The notes beneath the pieces are model-generated. The model ran no database searches. It was not told where the DNA came from and was given only the letters and a program-made list of their open reading frames with translations. From Octopus vulgaris (taxonomy: Eukaryota), in contig OX597824.1 in the NCBI GenBank assembly GCA_951406725.2, forward strand, positions 40,920,001 through 40,984,000: a stretch of 64,000 nucleotides of DNA, read 5' to 3'. The position numbers and the translations under genes are program-made. Positions 9,795 to 63,975 of the stretch are shown here, piece after piece (the stretch's first letter is position 1; each line of letters begins with the position of its first letter).

Positions 9795-10255
9795 TCCAAA
9801 GTTTTGTCTTCCTTACCTTCATCAGGCTGTGATTCACTTGAGTGGCTTTATATAGTCTTTGGCAGACTGTGTTTGGTTAGATGGAGCTATGCAAATGATA
9901 ATTAGGTGTGGTGTAAGTAGGCAGGGAGAGCTAGTTGTGTAGGAAGAGGGTTCGATGAGTGTAGAAAGAAAGTTTGTTTGTAGGGTGTGGGTTGTATTAT
10001 GACTTATTTTGGTTTGATGTGAGAATTTTGTTATTGTTTAGAGTTCAGTCAAACAATTTTGCTCTGATCCTCCTTTATTCTTCCTCTTCCTGCACAAGTT
10101 CTTCTGCCTACCTACAGCACACCTAATTATCATTCACATAGCTCAGCTCTCTACCTACCCAAAAAGAAACCTGCTAAAAACTATATAACCCAAAAGAAGA
10201 AAAAAAAAAGTAAATCACTGTCTGATGAAGGCAAGCAAGCCAAAATTTCTGAATT
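9795..10255. mobile_element. Old foldback insertion with outward-facing degenerate hammerhead motifs (Penelope-like)
   Basis: Arms about 9800-9950 and 10080-10245 are diverged reverse complements; CUGAUGA at 9819-9825(-) and 10222-10228(+), each followed by a short hairpin and AAAA (decayed GAAA). Confidence 0.6.
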
Positions 10256-10721
10256 TTCCCATTATAAAGATGAAAACATACGCTGAGCAATTGTTCCAAG
10301 GGGGTTATATAAATTTCCTAGAAAAAAATAGTGAGAAAAATAAACAGGAGCAATGAAGTGATTGCATATTGAATGTGATTTCTTATACTCAAATTCTCTT
10401 GTGATATTTTTAAATCAAGGAAACCTTTGATATATCATGTTTAAGAGAATGTGTGCATGCACTTACACAAAGCTTACAAAAAAGAAAAAAATCCCAAAAA
10501 ACCAAAAGCTAATTTGTAATCTTTTAAAGAGCATGATGTCAGAACTTAATAGAAGCCAATATAGCATACAAACATACATACATACACACAGATACATGCA
10601 TAAAACAGTATTCTTTAATAAATTTATGATCTGCTCTGTCTTTTAACTTCAAGTCACAGACCCTTTCTTCTTCTTCCCTGGTGTTGTTTGCAATTCCCCA
10701 TATCTCTCTACCCCTTGACAG

Positions 10722-10889
10722 GCGCAGGAGGACTAAAAAGCCGGACCGAGCTACATAAGCAGCGTTCGCTGAGCGGAGAGCCCTCTCCTTGCCACTCGCG
10801 CACTGCCTCTGTTGCTTCTGACTCAATGATCAGAAGCAGCAGTGAAGGCAATTTAGCCGATCCTCGGGAACTGGCTGAAAGGTTAAAAG
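10722..10889 (+). CDS. RALGAPA1: Exon (168 nt, phase 1-1): AGGLKSRTELHKQRSLSGEPSPCHSRTASVASDSMIRSSSEGNLADPRELAERLK
   Basis: ccccttgacag| acceptor, AAAG|gtatgg donor, GC-rich island with retained CpGs. Confidence 0.85.
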
Positions 10890-12204
10890 GTATGGTTTTA
10901 TTTGTATTTTTGTGCCTGCTTCTTTTATTATGCTTCCTCTCGGGGGCAAAAAAGAAAAAAAAGGAAATAAAATGGCTTTGATTTTTTTTCAATTTTCTGT
11001 AATTACTAAGTAGGTAATAGATTGGCAGAAACAGGAATACCTGAATAATGCTTTACAGTGTTTCATTAGTTTCCCTGTTAGGTTGTGAGTTCAAATTCTC
11101 GTGGAGGTTGACTTTGTTTTTCATCCCTCTGGGGTTGGTAAAGTCCCACTAATACACAGTTGTCCATGGAGCTGTCTATGGAATCACTTCTGTAAATTTG
11201 TAGACTTTTGTCAATGTTAAAAATTCTCTTTTAGTATTATAACTATCATCTTGTATCACTAATGTAATGATGTTGAGAAAAGTTTGAACATAAATCATTC
11301 TCTGTGTTATCTCTTTTAACAAATCTAGGTTATATTTTCTATGTACAACTATGTACTTATCATTAGCATGACGGAAGGGTAGTGATTTGATAGAAATAGT
11401 GAAGTACCTTTATAGTCTTTCATTTCCTTTTGTTCTCTATGCACGGAGTTGCATATCTTTCCGGGACTAATGTTGCCTTCCAATTCTTCAGTGTTAAGAA
11501 ATGTCAGCAACATACTAGAGCTGACCCAGTTGTCTGACTCATTCTTTACAAACACTTGTCTTCATACTTAAGGTCATGAGTTTCATGTATTAGAACTTAA
11601 TTGGAATAAACAGTTGAACATGTTACTAGTTTGATTTCATATCTTTGTAAAGTTTGACATTTTGTCGTTCACCGCTTTGAAAAATTCATGAGTTCAAATC
11701 CTACTAGAGCTAGTAATGTTGAGTAAACCTATACAGAGTTTAAAAAAAAAATAATTCAAATAACACTCAGTATTGTATTATACAGATAAGAAAGCAATAT
11801 TTCAAATGCAGTATATCTGTGAAAACAGCAGAAAGATTGGGTGTTAATACCCTTATAAAACAGAAAAAAATTTGTCAACAGACACCTTGGGACTGTTCCA
11901 TGGCTGTCTGTTGATAACTGGTTTCCGTCTTATAAAGGTAATAATACCCAATCTTTCTGCTGTTTTCACACCTATGCTGCGTTTGAAATATTGCTTTCTT
12001 GTCCGTATGATACAATACACATTTGACACTTTTAAAAACAAACAAACAAAAAAAAAATGTTTGTTTACATATGTTGTTGCAATACTCAGTAAGTTTTTAC
12101 TGTACTCTTGTGTATTGCTAATGTCTTTATGTTTAGTTGGTGGGCTAAACATACAGTTTCAGATGACATTTTCATTTAAGAAGGCATGGCTATGAACTGA
12201 ACTT

Positions 12205-12243
<39 letters not shown>

Positions 12244-15129
12244 TGTTTATTTGTCCATCAGTTGAAATATTTTAATACAACAGTTAATGTTTATCAAGTA
12301 ATCAAGAGTTGCAATTTGATCAAGCCTTTACCTGAGGCTCTTTATTAGTCTAAATTTTCTTGCTTTTAATTAATCTACTCAATAAATAATTTGTCTGCTA
12401 AAAAAATCAGTGCATATAAAATTGACAACCTGTGTATTCAAACTAGTGATAAAATATTTAATGCACACCATTGACAATCTGTTTTTTTTCTTTTTCTGCC
12501 TTTTGTTCTTTGCCTTTTTTACTGCATTTTAAAGCTGTTTACTACTTATGCTTTGTCATTCTAACACAGTTCTGTGTATGAATGTAAATAGAGGCTTCAA
12601 TGCTTTTTCACATTTTATTTGGCAGATGGAAGACATGTATTTGGTGTATTTTTTTTGTTATGTAATGGTATATTTTGTTAGGCTTCTATCAATTGCTGTG
12701 TCTATATTTGTATAAATTACTACTGTTAGCTTTAATTATTTTTTGAAGTTCATATAATATTCAGTAACTGGTATTTGATGGAATGGAAGTAGTTGGAAGT
12801 AAAAGATTTCTCTAATCTTATGAAATGATTTCAGTGGTGGTGGGGAACACTTTGTAACACGTTTTAAGGGCTCTGTTGGGACTGTTTCAGTTTAAAATTT
12901 TATGTCCTTGGGAAGGCATAAACTTAATCTATTATTTCTGAGATTTCCTGCCCCTTTAGGAAATTATTATTTGCTCTTCCTCTACCTTTTTCTCTTATAA
13001 TTCAAGGTATCATGTTTAGATTAAAACAAAAAGAAGTAAAACACTTCTTGTTGCTTGTATTGTTTTCATGTGTATGTGTGTACATAAAAGTTCATAATAT
13101 ATATAAAATATTCCAGTAATATACTGATGTTCTCAATATTTTACAGTATATACTTGTGTTGAGAATATACCTGCTGATTATAACATTTGAACTTGGAATT
13201 GAGAGATAGGGTTGTAAAGTGTTACATAGATAACTTGACATCTTACATATGTGAAACCAAGTGGAAAAGTTTATCAGCTACAATGATGGGAAGAAAGAAT
13301 AGGTGTACATTCTTCCAACTAAGTGATATTTCTTCAACTGGGGTGAAGCAGCTATATTATCGAAGATGTGGCTGCATAGCATAATTTATGTAGCTGGGAT
13401 GAAATATAGGAGTATAATTCTGTGTGCAGCCAGTGATAATAAATTTGACAGTTGTAATATTTACAATCATACTTTAAAGATGATTGAACAGATGAGTAGA
13501 GCCTGAACTGTTATACAACTAGATAACAAAGGTGTAATTATTGTAAGAAAGGAAAGTGGGATGTGGGAGTGATAAAATTGTTAGTGCATGGAGACCAATG
13601 TCTAACAGCATTTAAGTATTGAGTCATGACATTCTAAGTTCAAATCATATTGAGACTTTGCCATTCATTCCTGTACAGGTCAATAAACTAATTATGAATT
13701 ATATATTGAGTCCCTTGTTAAAGTAGGATTAACATATTTACAGCACTTCAGTTGTGCAACATGCACTAGAGTAGCTAATAGCATCAGCAACTATGGATTG
13801 AAGGCCGTTAAATGATTTTCACTGCTCTTGTTACTGTTAAAGCTTCCTGTCAGCGTCATCAAACAGACCTATGATCAGTAGTTTTCCAGCTGTGGCCACC
13901 CATCTTTTATTCTTGAAACGACCACCAAATCTGCTTGAAACCACACCTGACCATTTTATTAAAGGAAAGACACACTGCTATAGTAAACTTATATACAATA
14001 TAAGCTTACTATACCAATGTGTGTGTGTCTTTTGTTAAAATGGTCAGGTATGATTCAAAGCAAATTTGGCTATTGTTTCAAGAAGGTCGAACAGTTGCAT
14101 AATGGTACACACACACACAATCACTTTCTGTGGAGGTTATAACTCAGAAATTATTTTCGAGTAAAACTAAAGGTATATTCTTACACAGAATTGGTTGCAC
14201 AAATTTTGATCACTTGCAACATTTTATTTTATAAATTCTGTCACTCAAGTAGAATGCTACTCACTATACCTTTTAAGCACTTACTGTAGACTTATCACAC
14301 ATGGTTACATCATGGTACTTAAGCACTTTTTTGTTGTACATTGTTACGAGATAATTTGTACACCATATAACTTGGCAGCTTTGTTTTTTTTAATCATGAG
14401 TAAAGTTACTTTAAAAGCAGCACACCTGCATGAGTACATATAGGTATTTTGTTTTCAAATAGTAGTTCAAAAGTAGCAAGAGTAATCTGTTGTATATTAT
14501 ATTTCTTTTTTATTGTTAGAGTTGACTACTGTTTCATTACTTCCAGTTTTGTACTAACAAATATCAGGGACACCCCCCTCGACTCACTCACTCCTGATTG
14601 TTTCTATGGCATGAACACTGAAGTAATAGAACAGCAGAAAACTCTAAAATCAAATATGATACATGCATAGTTATATTAATAGGTCAGATACTGCTACTGC
14701 CACTGTTGTTTTGGCCCTTTACCAAACTCAGCTGAAGGTTTATTGTGATTAACCTCAGAGATGAATGGTCAAAGTTATGAAGGGTAGTCAGAAAGTAATG
14801 CAATTTTCATTTGCATTACTTTTTTACTCACCCTCATTGTCATGACCATCTTTTTTTTAATAATTAACATGCAATCATTTAAATTAGTAACCCAATTTCT
14901 TAGTTCACTAGGAAATGGGGAGTATAAAATATTTACCCAATTCTAACTCAGTAGCTGTTTCTTTTTCTGAGGGTTGTTAATTTTTGCAAATGGCTTTTTG
15001 TGATTTGGTTATGTTTATATTGGTCTTTTTTTTTTTTATTTTGTGTGTGTGCGTGTATGTGTGTGTGTTACAATGTGGCTACACTCTTGCATGGTTGTTG
15101 AGAAGATGGATATTTGTCTTGCTTATCAG

Positions 15130-15201
15130 GTGCCAGTTGCCAATCTGATCAGAAAGAAATTAGTATCACAGATAATGAAGACTTTCACACTGCTGCTGCA
15201 G
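15130..15201 (+). CDS. RALGAPA1: Putative exon (72 nt, phase 1-1): ASCQSDQKEISITDNEDFHTAAA
   Basis: cttatcag| acceptor, GCAG|gtgaga donor, open in phase 1 (a different frame from the ORF-track call). Confidence 0.7.
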
Positions 15202-15661
15202 GTGAGAATATGGCTTTTGCTTGTTCTGCATTTGTGTCTTGTTTGATAATTAATTAGTTATTCACTGAACCCAATCACATTTGCATGGTTCCTGACCTAA
15301 CCCAAATGAGTATATTTTTGAGGCATGCTTTTTTGTATTGTTATTTTCGATTTTAATGATAATTTTTACAGTATAATTCTGAGTATTAATTTGTCTGGTG
15401 GGTTGCCATAACTGTGTTTCAACTTCATGTCAAACTAGATATGGTTTATAATTATTATTATTCTGGCAGAATCGTTAGCATGCCGGACAAAATGCTTAGC
15501 AGCACTTTGTTCGTCTTTATGTTCTGAGTTCAAATTCTGCCAAGGTTGACATTGTCTTTCATCCTTTCAGGGTTGATTAAGTACCAGTTGATTACTCAGG
15601 TCGATGTGGTTGACTTTCCCCTTCCCCCAATATTTCAGGCCTTGTGCCTATAGTAGAAAGG

Positions 15662-15720
<59 letters not shown>

Positions 15721-18049
15721 GACAATGTTACTGTTGGCAATTTGGTAGAATTGTTGGAGCATTGGCTAAAGTGCCTTTACAGTATTTTTTCTTTGGTCTT
15801 TGTGCTCTGAGTTCAAATCTCACTGAAGTTCACTTTTTTTTGTAACCTTTTGAGATTGATAAACGGAACACCAATCCAAATCAGTGGATTTGTGGAATTG
15901 TTTGTGTTGGATGAAAATGCCTTGCATCTGTTCCAGCTCCTTGCATTCTGAGTTTAAATTCTGTCTAAAGATTAAAATCCCATCAATAGCCAGAAGCAGT
16001 TTCCCAATTATTTGACCACAATTAATTGTGGAGGGTTGCAGCCATTTACTGCTGCAGTCAGATGATGATGTTATTGCCATTTGTAGTAGTGTGTGATTTT
16101 GATCATAGTAACTAACAGTTAACTTTTTTGTGTTTGCCTTTCATTGTCTTTATAAATTTGATTATTTTGTAGTGTTATAATGTTTTACCTTTTCTAACAT
16201 TTGCCTGAAGCTTCCATAATTTTACCATTCTGCATGTGTTAATAATTTAGTGAGTTTTCTCCTTCCATTTGTCTGTAATTTTGCTAGGTTTTACCTCCCC
16301 CGTAGCATTTAGCATATTGATCTTCCTCTCTCTTTCACTAGTGCCTTGTGATTTTAACCCTCCTGTATTTGTTGCATGTATTGAATTTTTAGCCTAGCAA
16401 TATCTATAGCCTGTTTATGATTCTTAACTTCACTATATTTTAAAATATTTTGTATAACTTTTTTACTCTGCCAAATTTATTTTCTTGCCTTATATCTTTT
16501 CCCAGTGTCTGTTGATTAAATCTTGTTGCAGGGTATCATTATTGATCACTTTATTTATATACCTAGCCAAAACATGGGGAAAAGGTGGACATAGTTGATT
16601 ATATCAATTTTACTACTTAACTGAACATCTATTTTTTTAATAAATACTAATATTTTAACATGATAGCTAGTATAATAATCATGTTAAATCTGTTTGGAAA
16701 CAGGATTTGATTTCTTGCTTCATGAGTATTCTTTGGTTTTGATAGTGGTGCCCAAGAATGGCTGAAACTATTGAAAGACTGAAACTGATGATTCATTATT
16801 CTAGTATTCAAAAGTTCAAAGTACATGTGATACACCTCATTAATCTGCAAGTTACACCCTGCAAAAATGGATTTCTGGAACGAGAGGGAATTATTGTTGT
16901 CTTGACATTCTAATTAGTGTCTGATGTCCAGCCATTTTTGTTTGATTTGGAAAAATTTTTGAGAATTTCTTTTATGCAGAGTGCGCCACACACTCTTTTT
17001 TTCCCCAAGTTATAAAATCATACTTCAGACCATTCCAACATAAACTTGGTTATTATATCTTGGAAACTGACAGTAGTTTTCAATGTTTGTGAGATATCAA
17101 GAAATATTTCAGTGGCTACCTACCTTTCTTTCACAGTTGATCCATATTGATGTTTACTCAGGTTGCAGACATTCATCAAAGTTAGACATCCGTCAAAGTT
17201 ACTCCTAAAACGTTTACTGAATGGTTTGAACAGGCCAAGCAAGGCTTATAAACTATGTGAATACATTCAACTGATTGTATGTTTATAAATACTTTTCTAT
17301 GTCTACTGCTGGTGATTATTTTATTGACTCTGTCAGATAACATTTCAAATCAATTATAGTTAAATTTCAATGCAAAATTGTTAGATACCATACTGCTTTG
17401 CAATTCAGTCATTGCTTATTCAGTCAAGAGACATATATTGCTGCAATGCTATGCTTTAATTAATATTGCCATCATGAAGAATAACTGAAATATTCTTGAG
17501 AAAGGCATGTTTAAGTTAGGACTTCTAGATCTTGCCCTAATAACAGCACTAAAACTCCTATAATATATTTCTTCTCTGGAATCTATAGCTTAAAATAGTA
17601 GAATTTTTTTTTTTAGCTTCTCTTAAAAAATAACCGAACGTTTTTCTGATATTTTGAGCTAATATCTTTCTCTGCTAAGAGAACTACCAAATGCTTCACT
17701 TGCACAAATATTTTGAAAGACAAAGCATCTATGTCTCCTTGTTTCTCTATTTCTGTCACTTTGTGTCGTCATCTTTTACTCACTCTCTGCTCTGTTTGAC
17801 TTTCTCCATATTTCTCCGTTTAACTCTAACTTTTTTACCACGTATAATTCTCTTTCTCTCTCTTTGACTCCCTCACTATCTCCTAATCTATTAGCCTATC
17901 TCCAAATCTACTACTGACTCTCTCTATTTCTCTTTCCTCTCTCTGATTCTCCAACACCCAGTATCTGACATTCTTCTCCCTCTCTGTCTAACTTTCTGTT
18001 GCTTTCTCTATCTGTCTAACTCTATTTTTCTTTACCTATCTGTCTCATG

Positions 18050-18585
18050 TTCTCTCCTCATCTGTCAGTCTTGCACCTTCTTCCAGTCTGTCAGTCTCGC
18101 ACCTTCTTCCAGTCTGTCAGTCTCGCACCTTCTCTCAGTCTGTCAGTCTCGCACCTTCTCCCAGTCTGTCAATCTCGCACCTTCTCCCAGTCTGTCAATC
18201 TCACACACTTTCCCAGTCTGTCAATCTCTCATAATCTCCCAGCCTGTAAGTCTCTCACACTCTCCCTCTATGTCAGTCTCTCACACTCTCCCACTATGTC
18301 AGTCTCTCACACTCTCTCACTATGTCAGTCTCTCCCACTCTCCCACTATGTCAGTCTCTCACGCTCTCCCACTATGTCAGTCTCTCACACTCTCCCACTA
18401 TGTCAGTCTCTCACACTCTCCCACTATGTCAGTCTCTCACGCTCTCCCACTATGTCAGTCTCTCACGCTCTCCCACTATGTCAGTCTCTCACGCTCTCCC
18501 ACTATGTCAGTCTCTCACACTCTCCCACTATGTCAGTCTCTCACTCTCTCCCACTATGTCAGTCTCACACTCTTTCCCTGTATGT
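18050..18585. repeat. 26-bp minisatellite (TCTCCCACTATGTCAGTCTCTCACAC), about 20 units
   Basis: Direct periodicity; explains ORFs in all three + frames. Confidence 0.92.
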
Positions 18586-18964
18586 CTCACTTTCTATCCA
18601 TATCTCCTCTCCTGTCACATCCCTCTCTCACATTATATATTAGTGACACTTGTTACTTGAGTCAATGTTAGTGGTGTCATGTGTCAGTGTATCGTGTAGT
18701 TTGATAGTACTGGTACTAAAATTAAAAACCTAGACCAGTTTTTTTTTTCTTTTTTTTTTTTTCTCTTCTTCATTTCGGAGTTAAAGTTCTGCTTTGATTA
18801 CCATAACCTTTTTCTTGGTTCAGCTTCTGATAAAAGAAGTATTGGTAAAATTCTGGAGATGTGTCAATGAGGTAACAAAGGAAAATGAAATATTAAAGAG
18901 TGCCTAATATTTAGCAGATGTTCATAGCTGGCTGTTCCATATTGAACTTTTCTGTCTATTGCAG

Positions 18965-20586: not shown

Positions 20587-21932
20587 GTAAAAATTTACTT
20601 ATCTTTTAACTTTTTACTGTTAGCCTGCATGGCTACCATGTAGGTTTACTTTTTAACTAATTTTGCCTTCAGTTGTCTTGTATTTACATCTGAAATAGCA
20701 ACTGTACATCATTGATGTGGTATAAGTTACTGCTGTGATTATGACAATTATAACTACGGTTATAATTAGTAGTATTAATAATAGTAAGGGTCTTACCCAA
20801 AGTGTTATATGATCATGTTCATTATGATGACTGGGATGACTGAAAAGAAAGATAATTGTAGGAAGAATTGTGACATCAAAAGATGTGGGATATAGATAAT
20901 AATTCTATTTTGTGTATGGAACCATACTTAATCTTATTATGAAGATTGTTCATAAACCCAAGTTAATGAGTGCACATGATCAAGAACTGCACTATTGTAT
21001 TTCTGTTTTTTCACTTCATATTAGACTCCTCTAACCTGCTATATTTGATTAACTACTCTCCAGTTAGGTGCAGATATTAAACTGTTGATGTATAGCAGAG
21101 TATAGTGATGATTTGACAGACGTTCACTGTTACTTATTTTATCTGTTATCACACAGAACATAGCATAAGCTTATAAAATTAGTTTTGCTATGGAGAGTTT
21201 TGATTTGAAATCCAAGTTAATGAGAATGCATTTATTGTGATTTCAGATCTTACTCAGCATACCTGACTCTTAGAGTCAGCATAAATAGATGATTATTTAT
21301 AAAAATTAGCTTGAATTAACCTTCACAGCAAGACTTTATAGTCTACCTTTGGCTGTGTGGTGGTTTAATGTATGATTAACTACAAATTGATAACACTGTG
21401 TAACACGATTTTTGTCTTTGAGTAGCAACTATTATTTCCTATTTGCTTACCTCTATAAAGTATGGAAAATGGCTAATATTTTCTTCAAACTTTGCTTTTG
21501 TTACATGTATTCAAATCCCAAAGAATCCCTATCAACACATGGCTGTGGTGCTACCCCACTACACCTGCTTATGATCAGAGATGCACGTATTGTCAGCCAT
21601 TAAGGAACATAATCAACTGGTTATGGTGAAGCAACTGACAAGCAAACCTGTTATTGAGCAGAATATTTGCTATAATGATTCTTCTGTTTCAGCAACTCAG
21701 TGCCGAATCTCTCTGAGATGTATTGGAAAATTGGTCAGTTTCAAAACATTGTTGTCCAGATCACAGAAGCAAAGTTTGAAGGGAATAGTAGTAATTGCCT
21801 TTGATTTCCAGATAGAAGCAGATAGGAAATAACACTTACTGACCAAAGACAAAAAAAAAAAATTGTCATGCAGTGTAATGACCTGAAGATGTAGTGATAG
21901 TAACAATAAATGTATATTTAACTCTCTTCCAG

Positions 21933-25135: not shown

Positions 25136-25793
25136 ACTTATCAAGGTTATCTCTACAGATTTTCTGTAGAAATTATAGCCAGCACTGATTTTGTTACATT
25201 TTATATCCGAGACACTTGATGTAAACCACAGTGAGATCAAAGATGAAAAATGGGTAATTACTATAGAAATTATAACCAGCATTAATTTTTTTATGAGGTT
25301 TCGTATCCGAGATGTCTGATGTAAACCATAATGAGATCGAAGATGGAAAATAGGAAATGGGCATATACATCTTTTTTCAGATGTTTTTGCTCCTTCATCA
25401 GTACCCATCCAACCCATTAATCATCCACAAACACATTGCTTATAGAGCCACTAAATACAGCGGTGTAACGAAATACAGTGTGCCCATGCAAGTCATTAAT
25501 ATTTACATACTCGCTTCCAGGAATGAGTTTAATATTTAAAATTTGTATATTCAATAATGTGACACCACTATATTTAGTGGCCATATATGCAGTGTGTTCA
25601 TGGATGTTTAATGGGTTGGATGGGTGCTGATGAAGGAACAAAAACTCTTGAAATATGGTATATGCACCCATTACCCATTTTTCATCTTTGATTTCACTGT
25701 TTGTATCAGGTACCTGGGATACGAAACATTGTAACAAAGTCAGTGCTGGCTATAATTTTTATTAAAAAATCTGTCGAGATAACCTTAAAAAGT
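25136..25793. mobile_element. Foldback insertion (~650 bp) with a hammerhead-like motif in each arm (Penelope-like)
   Basis: AAGGTTATCTC...AGATTTT / AAAATCT...GAGATAACCTT ends; UGGGUG-CUGAUGA-AGGA..UCUU-GAAA..CACCCA at 25621-25670(+) and mirror at about 25357-25407(-). Confidence 0.7.
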
Positions 25794-26234
25794 GATGTAA
25801 TATCACTGCTAACACAGTATTGACTTATAAAAGTGTTTAATACACTTTGTTGTATATTATGGTTGCATAACTAAACACTGTGTTCTTACAGGTCATTAAC
25901 ATTTATATGTGTGTGTGTGTGGTGTGTCAAGGATTACTACGCAGTGTTTAACCTCATCTTCTACTAAAATATGTACACTCATTAGTACTGAAGCCTTAAG
26001 GTCCAACATTATGGTTTTAGTTGCTATGCACATGTAACAGTGTACTTATTTTTGCTGTAAATAAACATTTAGACATGTGTGCATATGCATACAAAACACT
26101 TATGCACTCTTTCATACTTCCAGGTAAACACACTTATAAAACTGCCATGCACATTTGTATATTTTCTTGTTTCTCATGTACATTTTCTTGTTTCTCTTCA
26201 TATTAACTCTTGTTGTCTCTACCATCTTTCACAG

Positions 26235-29255: not shown

Positions 29256-30684
29256 AAGTTGCTCATGAAGAAACTGTTGCTGTCCAGACCCTATACTTCA
29301 CATACTATACATTTTATCCAATTGTTCTTCACAAGAAGAGAAATCTGGGCATATCCATGTACTATGACAATAGCATAACAACAACAATAATATTAGTTTC
29401 AAATGTTGGTATATAAGGCCAGCAGTTTTGGGGAGGGTGGTAAGTCAAGTACATTAATCCCTGTTGTCAACTGGTACTTATTTTATTGACCCTTAAATGA
29501 TGTAAGGCAAAGTTGATCTCAGTGGAATTTGAACTTAGAATATGAAAATGGACAAAATGGTGCTAAGCATTTTGCCTTGTGAGCTAATGATACTGACTTC
29601 TTACTGCCTTAACAACAACAATAATACTACCCCTTTACCATTCAAGCTGGCCTTATCTGGCCCAAATATTCTATCCAGTTTTTTTGTTCAAACTGGCCAT
29701 GTCCAGCCTCTCATACCTACTTTACATTATCATTCTAAGAGTAAACAATCATTTCTTTGAAATCTCAAAGCCACAAGATAATGCATGATTACTTCAAAAC
29801 AATGTGAAGAAGTAAGTCTTACGTTTGATCGAATAATCTGAATGCTAAAGGGTTAAATCAAAGATGGTGAGTTGGCAGAGTCATTAGTACACCAGGGCAG
29901 ATGCTTGTGGCGTTTTGCCCGTTTTTACACTGTGAGTTCAAATTCCGTTGAGGTCAGCTTTGCCTTCCTTTTAGAGTTGATAAAATAAGTTGAGCACTGA
30001 AGTAAATGTAATTGACTTACACCCTTCTCCCCAAATTGCTGGCTTTGTACCAAAATTTGAAACCAATATTAATGAAATCAAGCAGACAATTTCACATTTT
30101 ATGAAAAGCTTGCATCACCTAATTGTTTTTGTTATTGTTGTCACCAATTTTAAGGATCCAGTAGTTGTTTAGCTCTTGGTTAGCTCTAAATGAGTAGACT
30201 CTCTCATCTAGGGTGTTCAAGCAGTGATCATGCTGTCTTTTTCTAGCAGTGTTTGTTTATGACCACATTATCCATTTATGATGGTTGGGTAGGTTGAGAC
30301 AAATTTAGCTGCTATTTCTAGCGGATTGAGTAACTGCTTAGCCCTTCCATTGTTGTTTGAAGAGATATTGAAACTTTTGTTATATTATGGAGTAGAGTAG
30401 AATATTTACAATAATATTTAATAGCTGCAATTTTTATGGGAAGTTTGAGTTACATTTACAGTTGGTTAGTCATTTTTATTTGGCATCATGAAGTTGTGTA
30501 GAAACAGTTTTGAAATGTCAAAGTTTTTGATATGAGATGAAGTGTATTGTCCAGATGGTTGTGGTTGTGGTGGTGGTTGATAGTTTTAATGGAGTTACTG
30601 ATGTTTAGTTTAGAATTATTTCCAGTAATATTGAGTATTGAAAATACTAACACCTTTCTAATGTTTGGCTTATTTCATTTCCAG

Positions 30685-30793: not shown

Positions 30794-31509
30794 GTTGGTT
30801 TTTTCCCTTTCTTTTTTCTCGTTTTTATTTTCTTAGTTCTGTATACATCATTGTCATAATCATTTAATGTCCATGCTGGCATGGGTTGGATGGTTTGACA
30901 GGGCTGCACCAGGATCCAGTCTGATTTGGCATGGTTTTCTACGGCTATATGCCCTTCCTAACACCAACCACTCTGAGAGTGTAATGGGTGCCATTTGCAT
31001 GACAGGTGCTATTTGTGTGACACAGGTATCTGCCATGACTGCAATCTTGCTTGGCTTGATGGGTCTTCTTCTCAAGCATGACATGATGCCAAAGGTCTTG
31101 GTTATTGCCTCCATGAGGCCCAAAACTTGAAACACTGTAAAATTTTTTTTGTTTCCATATAGTTTATTCCTGCAATTAATCTAGTGGATCAATCATTGTT
31201 GTAGCCTATGCTGGTATCACATAACTGGCACCCATGCTGGTGGCACATAAAAAGCACCCTTCAGACATAGAGCCTCATGGAGGCAATGATACCTTTGATG
31301 AGACCTTTGATGATATGCTGTGCTTGAGAAAACCTGTCAAGCCAAGTGATATTTCTAATACATTATCCACTCAATCATTTCATTTGAGTGTTTCTTTGAA
31401 GGAAGGGGGAGAGTGAGAGGGGGAAGGAAAATAAGAGGGAGAGAGGGAGGGGAAAGAGAGAGAGAGGTGTTATCAATGTTAGTATGATTGTAAAAGAGAA
31501 ATATCACTG

Positions 31510-31559
<50 letters not shown>

Positions 31560-31564: not shown

Positions 31565-31966
31565 TGTGTAAACATAAATGCAAAATAAGAGTGGATTATT
31601 TATAGTTGTTTGAGTAGAAATATCCGTGCTTTAAAACAAACCAAAATTGTATCTATTCCAAGCTAATCCATCTTCAGTTAACACAGCTGAAACTATCTCA
31701 GTCTCAAATTTAGCCAATCCATTTGAAGCCCCCCATAACTGGCCTTTCCAGTTATAGTTTCAACACCAAAGCAAATATCACTGGAAAGGCCAGTTATAGG
31801 GGCCTCAAATGGATTGACTAAATTTGAGACTGAGAGAATTTCAGCTGTGTTAATTGAAGATGGATTAGCTTGGAATAGATACAATTTTGGTTTGTGTTAA
31901 AGCACAGATATTTCTACTCAAACAACTATAAATAATTCACTCTTATTTTGCATTTATGTTTGCACA
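31565..31966. repeat. Near-perfect ~400-bp palindrome (arms ~195 bp, loop ~12 nt)
   Basis: Arms read as reverse complements with only scattered mismatches; centre about 31761-31772. Confidence 0.92.
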
Positions 31967-36212: not shown

Positions 36213-36936
36213 GTAAGTATTTCCTGTACATATGTGTGTATGCTTGTTTGAATTTGTATACAGACTTGTGTGTGTGTGAGTGTTAATATGCATGTTTGCG
36301 TAAGTGTGTGTATGTCAGTGTTATTTAGGGTGAGATCAGCTCTGATCAATTATATTTATTGTTATTAGAAGCATTACAACAATTCCTCACCTGTGTTTAT
36401 TTAAAAATTTTGTTCATCCCTTTAGCATTCAGATTATTCTGTCAAATGTAATGCTTATTTATTCACATTGTTTTGAATTGATCATGTATTATCTCATAGT
36501 ATTGAGATTTCAATGGACAGATCTAGACTCTCACATCTACACTTCAAAGTCATTCTAAAAATAAGCAATCACATCATCAAAATCTCAAAGCAACATGTTA
36601 ATACATGATAAATTTAAAACAATATGAATAAATAATCATTACTTTGGATAGAGTAATCTGAACGCTAACAGGTTAAAGTATTTTTGAAGCATATTTTAGT
36701 ATATGAAATAATGCTTAGTTGAAAGTTTGCTACATGAATGTTAACATTGTATGTAATATGGATGTAGGTATGTGCTTGTGTATATGTTTGCACTCTGTTG
36801 TTTTGTACTGTCATTTGTGTTTTGTAATGTGTAATTAAGTAGTCATGTTAGAAAGCTGACTTAACCTTGACTAAAATCAATTTGTTGCTTTAATTTAAGT
36901 TTTGTTGCTTTCCTTCTCTTTCTGTGCCTCTCAAAG

Positions 36937-50117: not shown

Positions 50118-50977
50118 AAGGGTGTGATGGCTAAATTGTCGCTATTTTATATTTTTAATTTCGTGCACGTGTACTGTTTTTGATTTTGTCAACGACACAG
50201 TATGGTCAGTTGGGCACCGTCTGTGAGACAAACAGTACCGTGATGCAATTCACTCTGCTAGAAATTTGGAAACAACATGCTGTGCTGTTTGGCATTTGCA
50301 CTGGAAGCTCTAGTACAAACACAGATGATGAACACACAGAACAACCGTTGGTGTGCCATGTCCCCAAAACATGTACCAAGAGTGATAAAAATCAAACATC
50401 CAGTCAACATGATAGTGTTTGGAGTGATCACTAGTGATGGTGATGTTATGCCTCCATTTATCTTCCCACACAGCTTCAGACTCAACCTCCTGGAGGAGGT
50501 AGTGCTGCCCTGAGTCAAGAGGATGGCTGCTGGAAGACCCTGTCTGGCAACAGGACTCTGCACCATGCCACACCTGCAGGAGAACCCAGTCATGGCTGTC
50601 AGACAATTTCTGCGATCACATCACCCCTAACATCTGACTACCTAACTCCCCAGACTGCAACCCGCTTGATTACTATGTGTGGGATGCAGTTGAACGAGAG
50701 ACTAACAAAACTCCTGGTAACACCAAAAAATGAACTGAAGGCAAGGATTATGGCAGCATTCACCAACTTAAACAAGGAGACTGTCGAGAAGAGTTGCAGG
50801 AGATTTCAAAGTCATCTAGAGGCCATGGTTGAAGCCAGTGGCAATTTTATTGAAGATTTACTCATTAGTATTTCATGATATTTTATGTAATTTTGGTAAA
50901 TATGTCTTTTAAAATGAGATGTCAGTGTTATTTTCATTTTTGCGTAATTTAGACGACAATATACTCACCACACCCAG
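50118..50977 (+). mobile_element. Decayed Tc1/mariner-superfamily element, DD37D (maT) type
   Basis: TIRs GGGTGTG..ATTGTCG; WQQDSAPCH...PNSPDCNPLDYYVW with 37 residues between the 2nd and 3rd Asp; stops and deletions. Confidence 0.88.
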
Positions 50978-55380: not shown

Positions 55381-56457
55381 TTAACCCTTTCGTTACTATA
55401 TTTCTGACCAAATTACACCCCTTATGTGTTTCAATTAATTTCTAACGTAATCATAAATTTAGTCTGGTTTCATTAAACAACTATAACTTTTTTATTAATC
55501 TGATTTTTGGAAGATAATTTAATGAAATATTCTCAACCAATTCTATACTATAATTTTTGTCACAAAGTGACTCTATTTGCAGGTAGATACAGGTAAATTC
55601 CACAAAATATAAAATTATTAAAATTTTGTTCAAACATCGCTATAGAAAATATTAGCTAATATTCAATTGGGTATACAACAAAATTTTACGATAGAATTTG
55701 TTATTCTGGGTAACTTTCTGATACCCATAATAATATTTATGGCAAAATAGGCCTTAATTTCATTTAAGGTTGTGGGAAATAACAAACTATCCTTTCTTTC
55801 GTTTTGTTTACGTTTAGCGTAACGTTTCGTTTTCGCTGTAATGATTTCAAATAGGCTCATTCGAAAAAGTAAATAGAAATAGCCTAAGGCTTTACCCTTC
55901 TGGGAAAGTCTGTGGCTTGGTCCAGTTTCTGCAGAAAAATCACCGAAAGAAACAGTTTTTAAATTTTCACTCCATTCAGGTGCCAATTCGTTTTCTTTAT
56001 CGCTATCGGAGATCTCAGATTCACTGTTTTCACTTTCGGAAAATGAAACATCAAATTCATTATCAAATACCATGTGCTTTTTTTTTTCAGTCATAGAGTT
56101 AGATTTATGAAGGTCTTCAGTAAAAATCCTTCGAATTCTGACTCGCTGCTTGATATAATGAAATTCGTATCCATTTTTTGTCAGAATTACAAATTTTGAA
56201 AACACAATAGGAACAAATTTCGGAAAAAAATCTCCCAAGATTCACGGAATTAAAATTACACTTCGATTATTGTACAAAACTGTAGTTGAACTGTTTATGA
56301 AGTATAATACGTGTTTTCACGAATGTACTGAAGAGATTTGCTCTGATATTCTCATTTAAATATGAATAGGTAAATTCGGGCGGCTTTGGGCGGTTTGGTT
56401 TCATAAACCAAAATTTTTTTCGGGCGGCTTTGGGCGGTTTGGTAACGAAAGGGTTAA
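55381..56457 (-). mobile_element. Internally deleted piggyBac transposon
   Basis: TTAA TSD on both sides, TIR CCCTTTCGTTAC, duplicated subterminal TTCGGGCGGCTTTGGGCGGTTTGGT; ORF 55663-56238(-) resembles the piggyBac transposase N-terminus (YFYLLF..IITAKTKRYA..TTLNEIKAYFAINIIMG..LP). Confidence 0.9.
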
Positions 56458-56569: not shown

Positions 56570-56904
56570 TTCAAATTAGATTTACGGAGATGTACTTGCA
56601 TAGCAAGTGATTTGATCTGAGATCGTGTGCTGAAATGAAAACAATTGCAGCGTGGAAGGTGTTTGTAAGCCATTTAAGAAACACACAAAAGCCATTCGAT
56701 TCACTTCAACATTTAAGTTTAATTTGTCAAAATATTTTCGTCACTTTAAGACCGCGACCTGTTCACTGACAAAAATCCGAGCACGAATATATATTTTGAC
56801 AAATTAAACTTAAATATTGAAGTGAATTGAACGGCTTTTGTGTGTTTTTTAAATGGCTTACAAACACCTTCCACGCTGCAATTGTTTGTGTTCAAATTAG
56901 ATTT
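56570..56904 (-). mobile_element. Foldback insertion with 14-bp TSD and hammerhead variant (Penelope-like)
   Basis: TTCAAATTAGATTT at 56570-56583 and 56891-56904; inverted arms about 56639-56741 / 56783-56887. Confidence 0.8.
56723..56773 (-). ncRNA. Minimal type I hammerhead ribozyme with G3:C8 core swap
   Basis: UUUGUCA-GUGAACA-G-GUCGC-ggucuuaaa-GUGAC-GAAA-AUAUU-U-UGACAAA: 7-bp stem I, 5-bp stem II, palindromic stem III. Confidence 0.7.
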
Positions 56905-57400: not shown

Positions 57401-58059
57401 GTATGTTTCTATTTTAGGATATATTTGTTACAGTCTTGTTTCATTGCTTTTTTTTTTGTGATTTCTTACTCTCTGCCTGTTTTTTTATTCTTTCTTTTTG
57501 ACTTTTTTCATTTTATGTTCTGTTTTACTTTTTCTTTTTTTCTTTTTTTGTCTTTTTCTTTTGATATTTTGTTCAATAACCATGTCAATAGAGTAATTGT
57601 AAGACAAATATTTGGTATACTATTTATTTATTGATTGATTGTGAAGTTACCTGACATTGTGCTTGAGTTAACATGGTCATAAGCTAATATTGATTTCTTC
57701 ATCAAAGAATGAATAAGGACACTTTTAGTGATGCCACTGTTTATAGGGCCAAGTTAATTTCACCCTGAAGTAGCTGTTTACTGATAAAAAATTGAAATGT
57801 TGGCTATGGATATAAAAAAAAAACATTAGAAGAGAATAAACAAAAATAACTTACAGAGAATTTTCTTTGGAGTAACTGTCATGGCATAATGGTAAATTAA
57901 TGATGTATGAGCAATGTCAGTCTGGTCACAGCTTCTAGTTGGAACTTTACAATGTATGCTTCTGTTTTAGTAACGAATAACATTGTATATGTATCTCTTT
58001 CTTATTAAAGTATACGAAATGTGAGTTAATAATTTATATAAATTTAAAAAATTTTCTAG

Positions 58060-58183
58060 CCGTGACACCCACAAAGTTGCTGTGATATATGTCGCTGAAG
58101 GTCAGGAAGATAAACACTCAATACTTGCTAACTGTGGAGGAAGCAAAGCTTACGAAGATTTTGTTAGTGGTTTAGGCTGGGAA
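58060..58183 (+). CDS. RALGAPA1: Exon, start of Rap/Ran-GAP domain: [41 protein letters not shown]
   Basis: ttctag| and GAA|gtaagt. Confidence 0.96.
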
Positions 58184-59770
58184 GTAAGTATATGTTTAAT
58201 GACTTGCCAAATGTTTTGGAGGAAGATGTATTGCATGTTGAATCTTTGCTAAATATCATTGTTGAATGTGTGAAAAGGCTTTGTGTTTGTGGTATTTAAT
58301 TGTTGGTTCATGGAGCTGTAATTATGTTATATTTCAAATCTTGTCTTCTAATTGTTTTTGATCACATTTAAATGATTATTCTATTCACTAACTGCAAGGC
58401 TTCGTTGAAGTATCTCACCTATCCCTTAGGTCTCCCATCAACCACTTACTTTCACCACCACCACTGCTGTTGCACCACCACCACCACCACTGCTGTTGCT
58501 ACCACCACCACCACTACTACTTGTAGATGTCTTCTGTTACAAATACATTTTCTCATTCATGTTTCATTGAAAACAAGATTTGTCAATTTTTTGTTTGGTA
58601 TTTCACTATCTTGTTTCTTTTTGCTCTGCTGTTCACAGTTAAATAATAGTACTTCTAGTAAACTACAAGATCTTACTGAGTGGTTAGCATGAGGACAAGA
58701 TAATCAGCATCTGAATTCTCTTGCTTTAAAAACAATTCTCAAAATATCAAGGAATATTGGAGTCTTGAACAAAGCATCTTATTTTATGTTATACAATTTT
58801 GTTAAAAGAACAGACACCACTTTCACATATCTGTTAAATAGGTGATACTAAAATATTTGTTTAATCACATCCTTACTATCAATCACAAAATGTTTTCTCA
58901 CCATCATCTATTAGTTGCTCTTAACTACAAACCATCAACATTGGTTCTATTACAGTTTACTATTCACACAAAATCTCTTAGCAGCTGAAGTTTAATCCTT
59001 TAGTATTCAGATTATTCTATCAAATGTTATGCCTATTTATTCATATTGTTTTGAATTAATCATGGATTATCTTGTAGCTTTGTGATTTTCATAATGTGAT
59101 TGTTTAATTTTAGAAGGACCTTATAGAATAGGTGTGAGAGGCTGGATCTGGCTAGTTTGGACATAAAACGTTGAATATTTTGACTGGATATGACCAGTTT
59201 GAGTACTAAAAGGTTAACTTGCACTTAGATATGACATAAGGAAGGAAAAGGAGTACTCTGTCGGTTATGATAATGGGGGCCCCAGCTGATACAATCAACG
59301 GAACAGCTTGATCGTAAAATGAACGTGCAAGTATCTGAGCACTCCACGGACCTGTGTACCTTTGACATAGTTCTTAGGGAGATTCAGTGTGACACAGTGT
59401 GACAGGGCTGAAATTCTGCTAAGCATTTTGCCTGGCATGCTAATGCTTCTGTCAGCTCACCACCTTAATGATGATAATAATAATAATAATCATTTCTACT
59501 AAAGGCACAAGATCTGAAATTTGGTGTGAGGGGACTAGTCAATTACATTGACCCCCCAGTGTTTCACTTAATTTATTGACCCCAAAAGGATGAAAAGCAA
59601 AGTTAGCCTCAGCAGAATTTTAACTCAGAATGTAGTGGCAGACGAAAACTGCTAAGCATTTCACCCAACATGCTTACGATTCTGCCACTTCACCACCTTA
59701 TTATTATGAATAATAATGATAACAACAACAATAATGATAATATGGTGTTCTGTTTTTGTGTATGTTACAG

Positions 59771-59926
59771 GTGGATCTTGAACAACATGTTGGTTTTCTT
59801 GGAGGATTGCAACAGAACAAGACTACAGGAGAGACTGCCCCCTATTATGCTAATTCAACATGTGAAGTTATTTACCACGTTTCCACTCGCATGCCAACTG
59901 GTAATGATGCAGCTATGCATATCAAG
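59771..59926 (+). CDS. RALGAPA1: Exon, GAP domain: [52 protein letters not shown]
   Basis: ttacag| and AAG|gtgagt. Confidence 0.96.
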
Positions 59927-61488
59927 GTGAGTATGTTTTATAGAATTTTTGTTTTCTTCTCTCTTGTCTATGCTGTAACAGTTTTAGTTCTGTTTTTGTG
60001 GAGAGAGAATGGTTGTAGGAACTCATTTATTTGTTAATTATGACTTAGCCAGTACAGACTTATGGTAAGAATGGGACTTGAAAAAGGCCTTCTGTGGATT
60101 GTAAAATACAAAATAGCTGCTTTTCATTGAATAACTAACTTATCATCTTGGAATTGTCTCACCAGAAGTTATAGTATCTGAATTCTTGTTTAGCCCTGAT
60201 CAATTTAGACCTATGATCATAGGGATTCCATCCCTAGCTAATCCATAAATGACTATATTTGATGTTTGTCTTCAAACTAGAGTTGTTTCATTTCACCTTT
60301 CAACAATGCTTTTACAAATTTTCTTTGACCCTTACATTCTAGTCTGTTAGATTATTGTCATGGTTTTCCTTTAGACTCTATTTCAGATTTTAAAAAAAAC
60401 CCAAAAAGCAAATGCAAGCCAATTTCTACCTTGAAAACAGCTCTGCTTTATGCACAAACTCTCTCACTCTCTCTGTGTAATGGGTGTTTTTTACATGCCG
60501 CTGGCATGAGTGCTAGTTAGGTAACACCAGCATTGGCTACGTCTATGATTTCACTTGACTTGATGGATCTTCTTAAGCATGGCATATCACCAAAGGTCTC
60601 AGTCACTTGTTATTGCATCTATGAGGCCAGCCCAATGTTTGAAGAGTGCTTTTTACATGTCACCGGCATGGGCACCAGTTACGTTACACAAACATTGGCC
60701 ACAACTGTGATTTATTTCACTTGGCTTCATGTGTCTTCTAACCCTTTAGTATTTAGATTACTCTGTCAGATGTAATATTTATTTATATTGTTTTGAATTA
60801 TCTTGTAAATTAGAAATTTCAGTGATGTGATTGTTTAGTTTTAGAAGGACATTGTAGGGTTGAGGTGAGAGGCAAGATCTGGCCAGTTTTTCAACATAAA
60901 ACTGGTTAAATATTTTGGCTGGATATTGCTGGTTTGAATGCTAAAAGGCTAAATATTTTGGATTCCTGTATGAAAGTATCTTTTTGCTTCCCTACTTCCT
61001 GTGAATGCATGTAATAGTCTAGTGGTCAGGTTGTTGCACTTACGATCGCCAGATTGTGGGTTCGATTCCCTGACTGGGCAGCACGTTGTATTCTTGAGTA
61101 AAACACTTCATTTCACATTACTCCCGTCCCTCTTTCAATCTTGCTGACCTGCTCACCTAGCCAGTGGGGTGGCTTTATTTGAAGGTGAAAACAAATCAAA
61201 AGCGCATTGTGACCAGTGATGTTTAATAATATAGCCTGTTCGGCCATGTGATCACAAGACTTACCTCCTAGTTGAGATATTTCATACATTCACTAATTAA
61301 GTTCATTAACCACTTAGTTTACATATGTTATTCCTTTCCAGGAGTAGATTTTGTGTTCACAACTGTTTTGTATTCATATTTTGGCATTCTGTTTTTGTGC
61401 ATGTTTTTGTGGCCTGTAGCCACTGTTTTTTTTGTTACTTTGTACTTTACTCCTTTATTTGCTAATTTTGACCAAATTGTTGTTATAG

Positions 61489-61647
61489 ATGAGGCATCTT
61501 GGGAATGATGAGGTCCATATAGTGTGGTCAGAACATAGTCGAGACTATCGCAGGAACATTATTCCGACAGAATTTGGGGATATTCTCATCATTATTTACC
61601 CACTTCCAAATGGGCTTTTTAGGATTCACATTAACAAGAAACCTGAT
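61489..61647 (+). CDS. RALGAPA1: Exon, GAP catalytic helix: [16 protein letters not shown]...NKKPD (Asn thumb codon 61504-61506)
   Basis: ttatag| and GAT|gtaagg; RHxGND motif of Rap1GAP/TSC2/RalGAP family. Confidence 0.97.
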
Positions 61648-62156
61648 GTAAGGAACATTTTAAAAATATATTTTCTTGTTTTTTATTGTATAATTTTAAA
61701 AGAATGTTCTTGTATTTTTTATTGTTCATTATAAAAAAAAAAGAAAATAACAATTAGAGTCCAAAGGAACTAATTATGCTTTGCTTTCAATAAAATTTAG
61801 GAATGTAAGATTGGTTTGTGTACCATAAATGAGGTAGGGTCCTGATTTCTTGAAGAAATCCCATTCCATGAATCATCAGAGCTGATCTTTTGCTACAGAG
61901 GCTTGTATTGTCTAGTCAAGTGTTCTTTTATTCTCTTATTTGTTTTAGTCATTTGACTGTGGCCATGCAGGAGCACTGCCTTGAAAGATTTTAGCCGAAC
62001 AAATCAACTGCAGGGCTTTTTTTTTTATCAAAGCCTAGTTCTTATTCTATCGGTCTCATTTGCTGAACTGCTAAGTTACAGGGACATAAGCACACCAACA
62101 CTGGTTGTCAAGCTGTGATGTGGGGACTAATACTGACATACAGACATACAAATATA

Positions 62157-62720
62157 TTGGGTCATCCCATAAATAATGTGGTTTTTTTATCAATTGCATT
62201 AACTAAAAGTTGGAGGGATCAGGATAAACTACCTGCATCATCTTGCTATAAAAGCAGGTAGTAATTTTAGTGTGAACTTATTTTTAGTGCAAGTTTTGAA
62301 GAGTGCAGTTCGATTTTAACGTTTATTTTTTCAAAGCTATAATGGAAGTGGCAAAGGAGCATATTTGGCATGTTTTGTTTTATGAGTTCAATAAAGGCAG
62401 GAACACAATGAAAAGTGCAAGGAATGCAGTATATGGGTATTGGACAATAAACATAAGCCTGTGTCAGTGGGGGTTCCAGAAATTCTGAGCTGGAAACTAC
62501 AGCCTAGAAGACGAGCCTCATCCTGGAAGATCTGTAGAGCTTGATGAGGACATCCTGCAAACCCTGGTTGAACAAAATCTCATTGTAACTGTTGAGGAAC
62601 TATCAGAGAAGCTTGGATTTGGTCATTCAACCATTTAGTGACACCTGCATGCCATTGGAAAAGTCAGCAAATTGGGTTGATGGGTTCCTCACAAACTTTC
62701 TGAGTCTAATTGCATGCAGA
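62157..62720 (+). mobile_element. 5' half of a decayed mariner element
   Basis: MEVAKEHIWHVLFYEFNKG HTH, SLEDEPHPGR, WVPHKL linker; several stops; truncated. Confidence 0.88.
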
Positions 62721-63118
62721 TGTTTTTAAAAATTTTTTTTGTAGCCCCCTACTGTTAGTGTTTTTGTGTTTTTATATACTTGTGGAAAACAAAATCATCA
62801 TTATTATTATTGTTATTAATAAGGTGGTGAGCTGGCAGAATTGTTAGCACACTGGATGACATGCTTAACGATATTTTGCCTGTCGCTATGTTCTGAGTTC
62901 AAATTCCACCGAGGTCAACTTTGCCTTTCTTCCTTTCAGAGTTAATAAATTAAGTACCAGTCAAGTACTGGGGTTGATGTGATTGACTGTATCCCTCCCC
63001 ACAAATTCCTGGCCTTGTGCCTATAGTAGAAGGGATTATTATTATTATTATTAGTGTTAATGCAAGGAAATTATTAGTGGTAGTAATATTATTAATGTTG
63101 TTTTCTTTTTAATTTCAG

Positions 63119-63243
63119 ATTCATTTTGGCCCATTGTTTGATGGTGCAATAGTCAATTCCAAAGTCCTCCCTTGTCTAGTCCGAGCCACAGCCATCAATG
63201 CGAGCAGAACAAAGCGGGCTCTGATGCCCCTCTACCATTCCCA
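63119..63243 (+). CDS. RALGAPA1: Exon (phase 0-2): [41 protein letters not shown]
   Basis: tttcag| acceptor; donor CA|GTATCTTTTT (U12-like); recognisable homology stops here. Confidence 0.92.
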
Positions 63244-63253
63244 GTATCTTTTT
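63244..63253 (+). promoter_or_regulatory. U12-type (minor spliceosome) 5' splice site
   Basis: GTATCTTTTT vs consensus RTATCCTTT; unlike the other 28 donors. Confidence 0.75.
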
Positions 63254-63622
63254 ATTAGCTGTGTTGAAATGCTGTTTTTATCCATTTTCAAATGTAAAAG
63301 ATGAAGAGAATGTCTTCCTCTATCTGCTCCCACATAGTGTAGTTCTTATTTCCAACTTGTCAGTGAAAGCCACTTGCAAATCAAATCTCTTGATTAAATA
63401 GACTGTTCACTTCATCAAATAGACTATTAATGATAGGATATGAACTTCCAATGTTTTTATTGGCTTTCTACTACCTTATTGATTTGGTCATCTTTTTCTT
63501 CTTAAGAACATACAGGGTTTGTGTTTGGCACTCTCAGAGTTAGTAACCATGTCAAGGTGTTCATTTTTACTAGAGGACCAAGAAGAGAACAACATTCTTA
63601 CCAAAATGATCTTGTTGTTTAA

Positions 63623-63641
<19 letters not shown>

Positions 63642-63654
<13 letters not shown>

Positions 63655-63975
63655 TCACTGCCTGGTATTGAACTCGGAATCTTGGGGTTAGTAGCCTGCG
63701 CTCAACCACTATACCACGGCCATATGGCATAGTGGTTAAGAGCGCTTGCTACTAACTCCAAGATTCCAAGTTCAATACTAGGCAGTGACCTGAATAATAA
63801 TGTTATTATTATTAATAATAATAACAACAACAATGGCAACATTGAAAAATACCTTAGGAATGAGAACCCAGGTTCAAAATTTCCCCAAGATACCTGATGA
63901 AGGCTGGAGGGTATATCAGCCGAAATGTTATGTTAACAAACAAGATGAGGACAAATATTCGTCAAATGTAAATAC
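63642..63975 (+). mobile_element. tRNA-headed, hammerhead-containing element with 5' inverted copy
   Basis: Arms 63642-63716 / 63725-63801; A-box TGGCATAGTGG, B-box-like AGTTCAATAC; hammerhead downstream. Confidence 0.75.
63889..63934 (+). ncRNA. Minimal type I hammerhead ribozyme motif
   Basis: CUGAUGA(63894-63900)-A-GGCUG-gaggguauau-CAGCC-GAAA-UGUU; stem I imperfect. Confidence 0.7.

Follow-up and report, generated by a model that had tools for sequence, protein, structure and literature searches.

Five foldback insertions lie in a 64,000-nucleotide stretch of the Octopus vulgaris genome (assembly GCA_951406725.2, contig OX597824.1, positions 40,920,001 to 40,984,000 of the forward strand; hereafter, the window). 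We refer to them as E1 (9.8 kb), E2 (25 kb), E3 (31.6 kb), E4 (56.6 kb), and E5 (63.6 kb), and to a lone hammerhead-like motif in the same window as H0. It is probable that E1, E2, E4, and E5 represent four unrelated families of short non-coding elements with a minimal hammerhead ribozyme, likely mobilized in trans by the reverse transcriptase (RT)/GIY-YIG enzyme of Penelope-like elements (PLEs), and that E3, which occurs only once, is an inverted duplicate of the sequence flanking it. An initial annotation had assigned all five insertions to short non-coding families that use the PLE mechanism; this view is retained for four of them but not for E3, which is single copy and lacks a hammerhead.

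Four hammerhead families among five foldbacks

All five inverted repeats were found close to where they had been placed, with arm identities of 69% (E1), 74 to 82% (E2), 91 to 93% (E3), 95 to 96% (E4), and 84% (E5). The extents first given were approximately right but were corrected to 9765–10249 for E1, 25136–25905 (instead of an end at 25793) for E2, 56582–56892 for E4, and 63612–63979 for E5. As had been proposed, E1 to E5 share no common primary sequence, whether compared as window copies or as family consensuses. The genome searched for further members comprised 2.8 Gb in 227 contigs and yielded 38 first-look candidates for E1, 1,714 for E2, 1 for E3, 2,230 for E4, 3,473 for E5, and 1,451 for H0, of which 25, 25, 2, 25, 30, and 15 loci, respectively, were examined, with the window copies counted in.

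The presence of hammerheads in four of the five is borne out by the family consensuses of E1, E2, E4, and E5, each of which holds a complete minimal type I hammerhead with stems I and II, the GAAA, and a palindromic stem III, as well as an additional base after A9 in E1, E4, and E5; the core of E4, however, is GUGAACA and not CUGANGA. A strict descriptor (stem I of at least 5 bp, stem II of at least 4 bp, palindromic stem III, and a 3-8 pair of C-G, G-C, or U-A) has a single match in the window, that of E4 on the minus strand at 56766, with 2 matches in 200 shuffles. The other motifs of the window are decayed and can be assessed through their families alone. Bare CTGANGA half-cores occur 37 times, compared with 30 expected (range, 18 to 45), and since this is chance level, a lone half-core is no evidence of a hammerhead.

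We rejected as unsupported the suggestion that selection damages motifs on the sense strand of the host gene while sparing antisense ones. The motifs are damaged on both strands in E1 (9825 on the minus strand and 10222 on the plus strand) and in E2 (25401, minus, and 25627, plus), the sense motif of E5 is nearly intact, retaining its core, stem II, and GAAA, and the sense arm of E4 is without a core through truncation. Damage instead tracks age: the family-to-window-copy identity is ~72% for E1, ~80% for E2, ~93% for E5, and ~97% for E4, and core and GAAA are unbroken, in step with this, in 9/25, 15/25, and 24/30 copies of E1, E2, and E5, respectively.

A shared insertion signature

The outward course of the motif-bearing strand from the center, first noticed in the window, holds across the families. 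The inverted copy lies upstream, head to head, rather than downstream in 12 versus 0 cases for E4 (n = 25), 21 versus 2 for E5 (n = 30), 11 versus 1 for E2 (n = 25), and 5 versus 0 for E1 (24 distinct loci). The inner end of the inverted copy is widely variable, and each young family has two alternative 3' ends. Of the 21 two-arm loci of E5, 19 have the 31-nt tail on a single arm, 2 lack it altogether, and 0 have it on both, and 7 of 8 two-arm loci of E4, picked from pattern lists, combine one long (198 to 206) with one short (142 to 150) arm. In run X15, the E4 DNA contigs stop at three places, the 5' end and each of the two 3' ends (33, 40, and 53 loose ends). E4 contigs also occur in runs presumed to be of RNA, although this says nothing about expression.

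Duplications of at least 9 nt flank 13 of the 30 E5 loci, versus 7/870 cross-paired controls, and 12 of the 25 E4 loci (3 of them simple TA repeats), versus 31/600 controls; in both young families they vary between 9 and 17 bp and differ in sequence as well as in length. The initial annotation had named constant arm lengths, fixed terminal inverted repeats with short fixed target-site duplications (TSDs), and consensuses devoid of cores as the marks of DNA elements. What the families display is cores in the consensuses, arm lengths and flank duplications that differ between copies, and many plain monomers without any inversion, and neither equal fixed terminal inverted repeats on all copies nor a short fixed TSD was found.

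We propose that a PLE complex nicks both strands ~9 to 17 bp apart, whereupon each 3'-OH would prime reverse transcription, one at a distal start that includes the tail and the other at a proximal start that leaves it out. The two cDNAs would extend inward and be joined at variably truncated ends, and the product would be a foldback with outward ribozyme strands, a one-sided tail, and a variable target duplication. The RNA might be supplied by RNA polymerase III (Pol III) from the tRNA-like head in E5, by circular or tandem RNA in E2, and by read-through or tandem arrays in E4. Cleavage by the hammerheads is predicted to require dimerization through the palindromic stem III.

E4, a high-copy family with a swapped 3-8 pair

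The E4 unit is 206 nt long. Its 5' end is fixed and lies 21 nt ahead of the core, and its tail measures ~57 nt. In the window, the main copy (56582–56782, minus strand; unit positions 6 to 206; 98% identity to the consensus) carries the long 3' tail and the core that starts at 56766, while the inverted partial arm (56791–56892, plus strand; unit position 53 to ~150) is without core and tail. Both are enclosed by a perfect 14-bp TSD, with its left copy at 56570–56583 and its right copy at 56891–56904. Elsewhere, 13 of the 25 copies have no adjacent inverted arm, and two loci (L100 and L101) hold head-to-tail arrays.

The GUGAACA core is flanked by stem I (7 bp) and stem II (5 bp), and its positions 3 and 8 form a Watson-Crick pair, G3-C8. 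Stem variants present at 5% or more preserve pairing, and none falls within the core; loop II has, among the 100 matches listed, several variants around a largely constant stem. The motif pattern matches the genome 9,428 times, compared with 46 matches of a reversed control. A slightly altered pattern gave 278 matches with G3.G8, 50 with C3.C8 (~38 of them family members, judged by eye), and 16 with C3-G8, of which 2 are family copies. Since ~1 such copy is expected from the 278 G3.G8 and ~38 C3.C8 singles, the two canonical-core copies are at the level predicted by independent mutation, and we make no claim that positions 3 and 8 covary in this family. A third canonical-looking C3-G8 match (L180) is not a member of the family. 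One E4 foldback (L183; G000:C18:35457300-35458500) has the G3-C8 core in one arm and the canonical C3-G8 in the other. A 16-way core control gave 49 matches for GC, 25 for CG, 9 for TA, and 2 for CA, counts that are biased because most of the loci were chosen for these families.

The swapped pair is predicted to be compatible with cleavage. U3-A8 is a known natural variant of the hammerhead core (PMC4209133; PMC3088659, Perreault 2011), whereas G3/C8 is reported, in the passages concerned, only as an engineered rescue (PMC11167929; PMC8495972; PMC3884650), the C3G/G8C double mutant being partly active (PMC11167929). No report of a natural G3-C8 core was found in our literature searches, which covered the work on PLE hammerhead variants only in part and neither Repbase nor Dfam. 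Among the first 100 G3.G8 matches listed, four insertions carry the mismatch in both arms, suggesting that RNA with a presumably dead core is likely still copied. This agrees with passages of PMC11167929 in which ribozyme mutants leave insertion in vitro unblocked.

E5, a family with a tRNA-like head

E5 has a unit of roughly 270 to 300 nt, whose 75-nt head starts at G1 and contains exact A and B boxes. Among 27 distinct tRNA sequences of a few isotypes, the head aligns best to this genome's tRNA-Arg (z of ~9; 0/300 shuffles), a comparison that does not fix the parent tRNA. ARAGORN found 0 tRNA genes in 17 E5 loci, and Rfam gave no tRNA call in the window or on the E4 and E5 copies scanned. 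The window copy consists of an inverted arm (63612–63716, minus strand) with (TTA)n and the inverted head only, the tRNA-like head itself (63721–63792, plus strand; A and B boxes in the family consensus), and a body (63838–63979, plus strand) with the minimal hammerhead at 63894 and the short 3' end, without the 31-nt tail. Its arms thus comprise head and (TTA)n, with the hammerhead outside them. One locus (L027) holds a more-than-unit or tandem copy. A tRNA-headed element with a PLE-type signature was not reported in the same, partly covered literature.

The older families E1 and E2

E2 is a circularly permuted, retrozyme-like 413-nt unit that wraps onto its own 3' end and has a tail of ~120 nt. 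Its 3' ends cluster at unit positions 285 to 295 (13/25 loci) and 407 to 412 (6/25), and the main arm exceeds one unit in 8/25 loci. In the window, the inverted arm (25136–25470, minus strand), which contains an internal ~98-bp tandem duplication and one of the damaged motifs, stops at unit position 289, the short 3' end, and the main arm (25466–25905, plus strand) spans 451 nt of the permuted unit with the other motif and stops at the long one.

E1, an old family, comprises in the window a left arm (9765–9994, minus strand) with a decayed motif and a right arm (10058–10249, plus strand), in which the motif at 10222 has lost G12, likely by CpG decay; the consensus restores a full minimal hammerhead. 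Upstream, its similarity declines gradually over ~350 nt of A/C-rich sequence. Head-to-tail or more-than-unit copies of E1 were not seen in the loci examined.

E3 and H0

E3 is ordered as a 14-mer (31499–31512, plus strand), (TA)n, an inverted copy of the following 195 nt (31565–31759, minus strand; 93% identical; no hammerhead), ~12 nt, and then the template arm (31773–31966, plus strand), which is single-copy intronic DNA opening with the second copy of the 14-mer. No second copy of E3 was found in the genome search. Two runs provide contigs that cross the hairpin center without differences and at a depth of ~5, compared with at least 10,000-fold for the flanking repeats, which indicates that E3 is real and single copy. 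Run X16 reaches only its outer right arm and does not demonstrate an empty site. The CUGAAGA half-core of E3 is a chance occurrence. The layout of E3 points to snap-back duplication of the adjacent sequence as its likely origin. The break involved would have been staggered, like that of a PLE insertion, and either PLE enzymes or host repair could have carried out the synthesis.

The lone motif that had been placed at 588–623 on the minus strand is present at 618, but it belongs to a separate 194-nt family, H0 (497–690, minus strand), bordered in most cases by (TA)n/(CA)n and without a foldback in 15 loci. H0 has stem II and GAAA, but its stem I is only 3 bp long, its flanks are microsatellites, and its consensus core is an atypical CCGAYGA, the CTGATGA of the window copy being probably a product of CpG decay. 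With core and GAAA unbroken in 1/15 copies, H0 was rejected as a canonical hammerhead.

PLEs in the genome and the search for a partner

A search for GIY-YIG returned 6,136 candidates, many of them within 781-amino-acid open frames together with an RT, and the genome carries young RT/GIY-YIG PLEs. Their cysteine-rich linker suggests what we take to be the Neptune clade. Passages of PMC8557442 are consistent with this placement. One coding copy (L144, 1621–4783) forms a foldback like those described here, with 766-nt arms whose 100% identity implies a very recent insertion. In a young coding family (L115 to L149), a U3-A8 hammerhead lies 0.4 to 0.9 kb past the open reading frame (ORF), and loop II varies between subfamilies. 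PLE loci also contain further, unrelated complete hammerhead motifs (L111 at 690, minus strand; L119 at 3015, minus; L126 at 27, plus), which suggests that there are more families.

A link of the families to an autonomous RT/GIY-YIG element by shared termini, as the initial annotation had envisaged, was sought in 70 GIY-YIG loci. Matches to the families in these loci are on the opposite strand, upstream of the ORF end, or at least 1.4 kb past it; weak E1 matches were discarded as opposite-strand or low-complexity. No shared terminus emerged, so a PLE is the putative partner.

Alternative explanations

The families might instead be the heavily 5'-truncated ends, or pseudo-long terminal repeats (pLTRs), of autonomous PLEs, and not independent non-autonomous elements. 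While the upstream fading of E1 and the like foldbacks of coding PLEs would fit this idea, the 5' end of E4 is fixed, E5 begins at G1 of its head, and E2 wraps onto its own 3' end; moreover, tblastn with four PLE proteins of this genome had no match in the window or at any locus of the families. Truncated pLTRs are thus unlikely for E2, E4, and E5, and we regard them as improbable overall. Another possibility is that the families are short interspersed nuclear elements (SINEs) dependent on long interspersed nuclear elements (LINEs), with inversions caused by twin priming or later recombination and hammerheads as passengers. E5 does combine a tRNA-like head with variable TSDs as ordinary SINEs do, no PLE partner emerged from the 70 loci, and the insertions with G3.G8 in both arms suggest that copying does not require an intact core. 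However, LINE twin priming inverts the 5' part of an element without duplicating its 3' end. Here it is the 3' part that recurs in the inverted arm, which terminates at either of two fixed 3' ends, and the tail is confined to one side; we see only a slim chance that LINEs are the partners. As for DNA foldback elements or miniature inverted-repeat transposable elements (MITEs) with motifs arising by chance, the near-fixed outer ends, the chance frequency of bare CTGANGA in the window, and the MITE-like foldbacks nearby all speak for them. Yet the arms are unequal or, in about half of the E4 copies, missing, head-to-tail arrays exist, and TSDs vary; complete hammerheads in four independent consensuses and the excess of the E4 motif over its control are equally hard to reconcile with chance. 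This explanation is largely refuted, and we consider it scarcely credible.

Several observations nevertheless weigh against mobilization of hammerhead families by PLEs. No terminus shared with E1, E2, E4, E5, or H0 was found in the 70 GIY-YIG loci, which were drawn mostly from three families among the 6,136 candidates, and the hammerhead at the end of the dominant coding PLE family is another one, a minimal motif with U3-A8. Rfam hammerhead models matched neither the window nor the E4 and E5 copies tested. The tails of E4 and E2 exceed the published 30 to 40 bp, a flank duplication of at least 9 nt was seen in only 1/25 E2 loci, and none was seen at the E1 and E5 copies in the window. In this genome, a foldback by itself has no diagnostic value, since 10 of 30 unselected tRNA-gene loci contain self-inverted repeats too, and the loci studied were the best-scoring 25 to 30 per family, not a random sample.

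Other features of the window

The window contains at least five foldbacks beyond the five discussed above. Two with short loops, at 11770–12018 (84% self-identity) and 13910–14084 (78%), have no hammerhead match and may be E3-like local duplications or MITEs. A MITE-like element at 21409–21855 is bounded by terminal inverted repeats of 93 bp and is matched at 80% in another locus (L113). At 29385–30074, two opposed copies of an abundant tRNA-type SINE, presumably related to the octopus SINEs, flank an inverted-repeat element, and a further copy of that MITE-like family lies at 36422–36668. A minisatellite with a 26-bp period and ~22 copies occupies 17935–18662. Open frames at 50261–50875 are presumably remnants of a decayed Tc1/mariner transposase, and we take a 192-codon open frame at 55666–56241 (minus strand) to be a piggyBac-type transposase fragment. 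Three exons within an approximate span of 57999–61731 on the plus strand match Rap_GAP, two of them above the curated cutoff, indicating that the host gene is transcribed on the plus strand. This gene is presumably RalGAPA-like.

Relation to known systems and implications

Both inverted 5' copies and non-autonomous PLE derivatives with hammerheads have been described before. Passages of PMC7229834 and bioRxiv 10.64898/2026.07.22.740005 describe non-LTR retrozymes as non-autonomous PLE derivatives, which the octopus families resemble in their non-coding units of ~200 to 410 nt, their type I hammerhead, their co-occurrence with PLEs, the permuted and more-than-unit copies of E2, and the tandem arrays of E4. 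Unlike those described there, most copies here are dispersed monomers or head-to-head foldbacks rather than tandem arrays, and no homology to a coding PLE pLTR was found in the 70 loci. The insertion signature of one-sided tail and TSD is measured here. The short stem I, the additional base after A9, G10.1-C11.1, and the palindromic stem III are shared with the minimal PLE hammerheads of Cervera and De la Pena (2014; PMC4209133), where dual opposite-strand motifs 100 to 700 bp apart and the U3-A8 variant are also mentioned and minimal hammerheads are described as nearly inactive as monomers. The alignment in that paper lists C3 and U3 cores only, in contrast to the G3-C8 of E4. E5 recalls the SINE-like schistosome repeats Sm-alpha and Sj-alpha (PMC6765202) in that a hammerhead follows a Pol III-type promoter, but differs from Sm-alpha in its minimal, dimer-type motif with PLE tail and foldback signature; passages of PMC6765202 do not name the mobilizing partner of Sm-alpha.

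For PLE insertions, passages of PMC8557442 describe an inverted 5'-truncated copy and a one-sided tail, and those of PMC11167929 a PLE protein that cuts both strands and extends them, starting reverse transcription at two internal sites. The families thus resemble Penelope, Neptune, and Naiad insertions in these respects and in their microsatellite or AT-rich targets, but they encode no protein, and the E4 and E2 tails are longer. Passages of PMC6962438, PMC5718144, PMC6155905, and PMC3884650 add nothing decisive. No report of octopus PLE hammerhead families was found in the literature searched. As far as these incomplete searches reach, the families with the G3-C8 core and with the tRNA-like head are novel variants.

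It is tempting to speculate further, although we hold the following combination to be somewhat less than evenly likely. E4 may be a natural, active G3-C8 hammerhead in ~10,000 copies, so that this genome would use C-G, U-A, and G-C 3-8 pairs in separate families; E5 may be a true tRNA-derived SINE that relies on a PLE as partner and not on a LINE; the strictly one-sided tail may mean that both strands are primed from one RNA or from an asymmetric dimer; and E3 may be the same machinery misfiring on a flank.

The high-copy G3-C8 core escapes both CUGANGA descriptors and Rfam here, which suggests that ribozyme surveys overlook whole families. A tRNA-headed element with a PLE signature would, if true, widen the range of SINE partners beyond LINEs. 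Finally, young and short families provide thousands of insertions that can be scored for tail side, arm length, and TSD, and thereby for the unresolved second-strand step of PLE transposition; the same insertions can address whether ribozyme cleavage matters for PLE-type copying.

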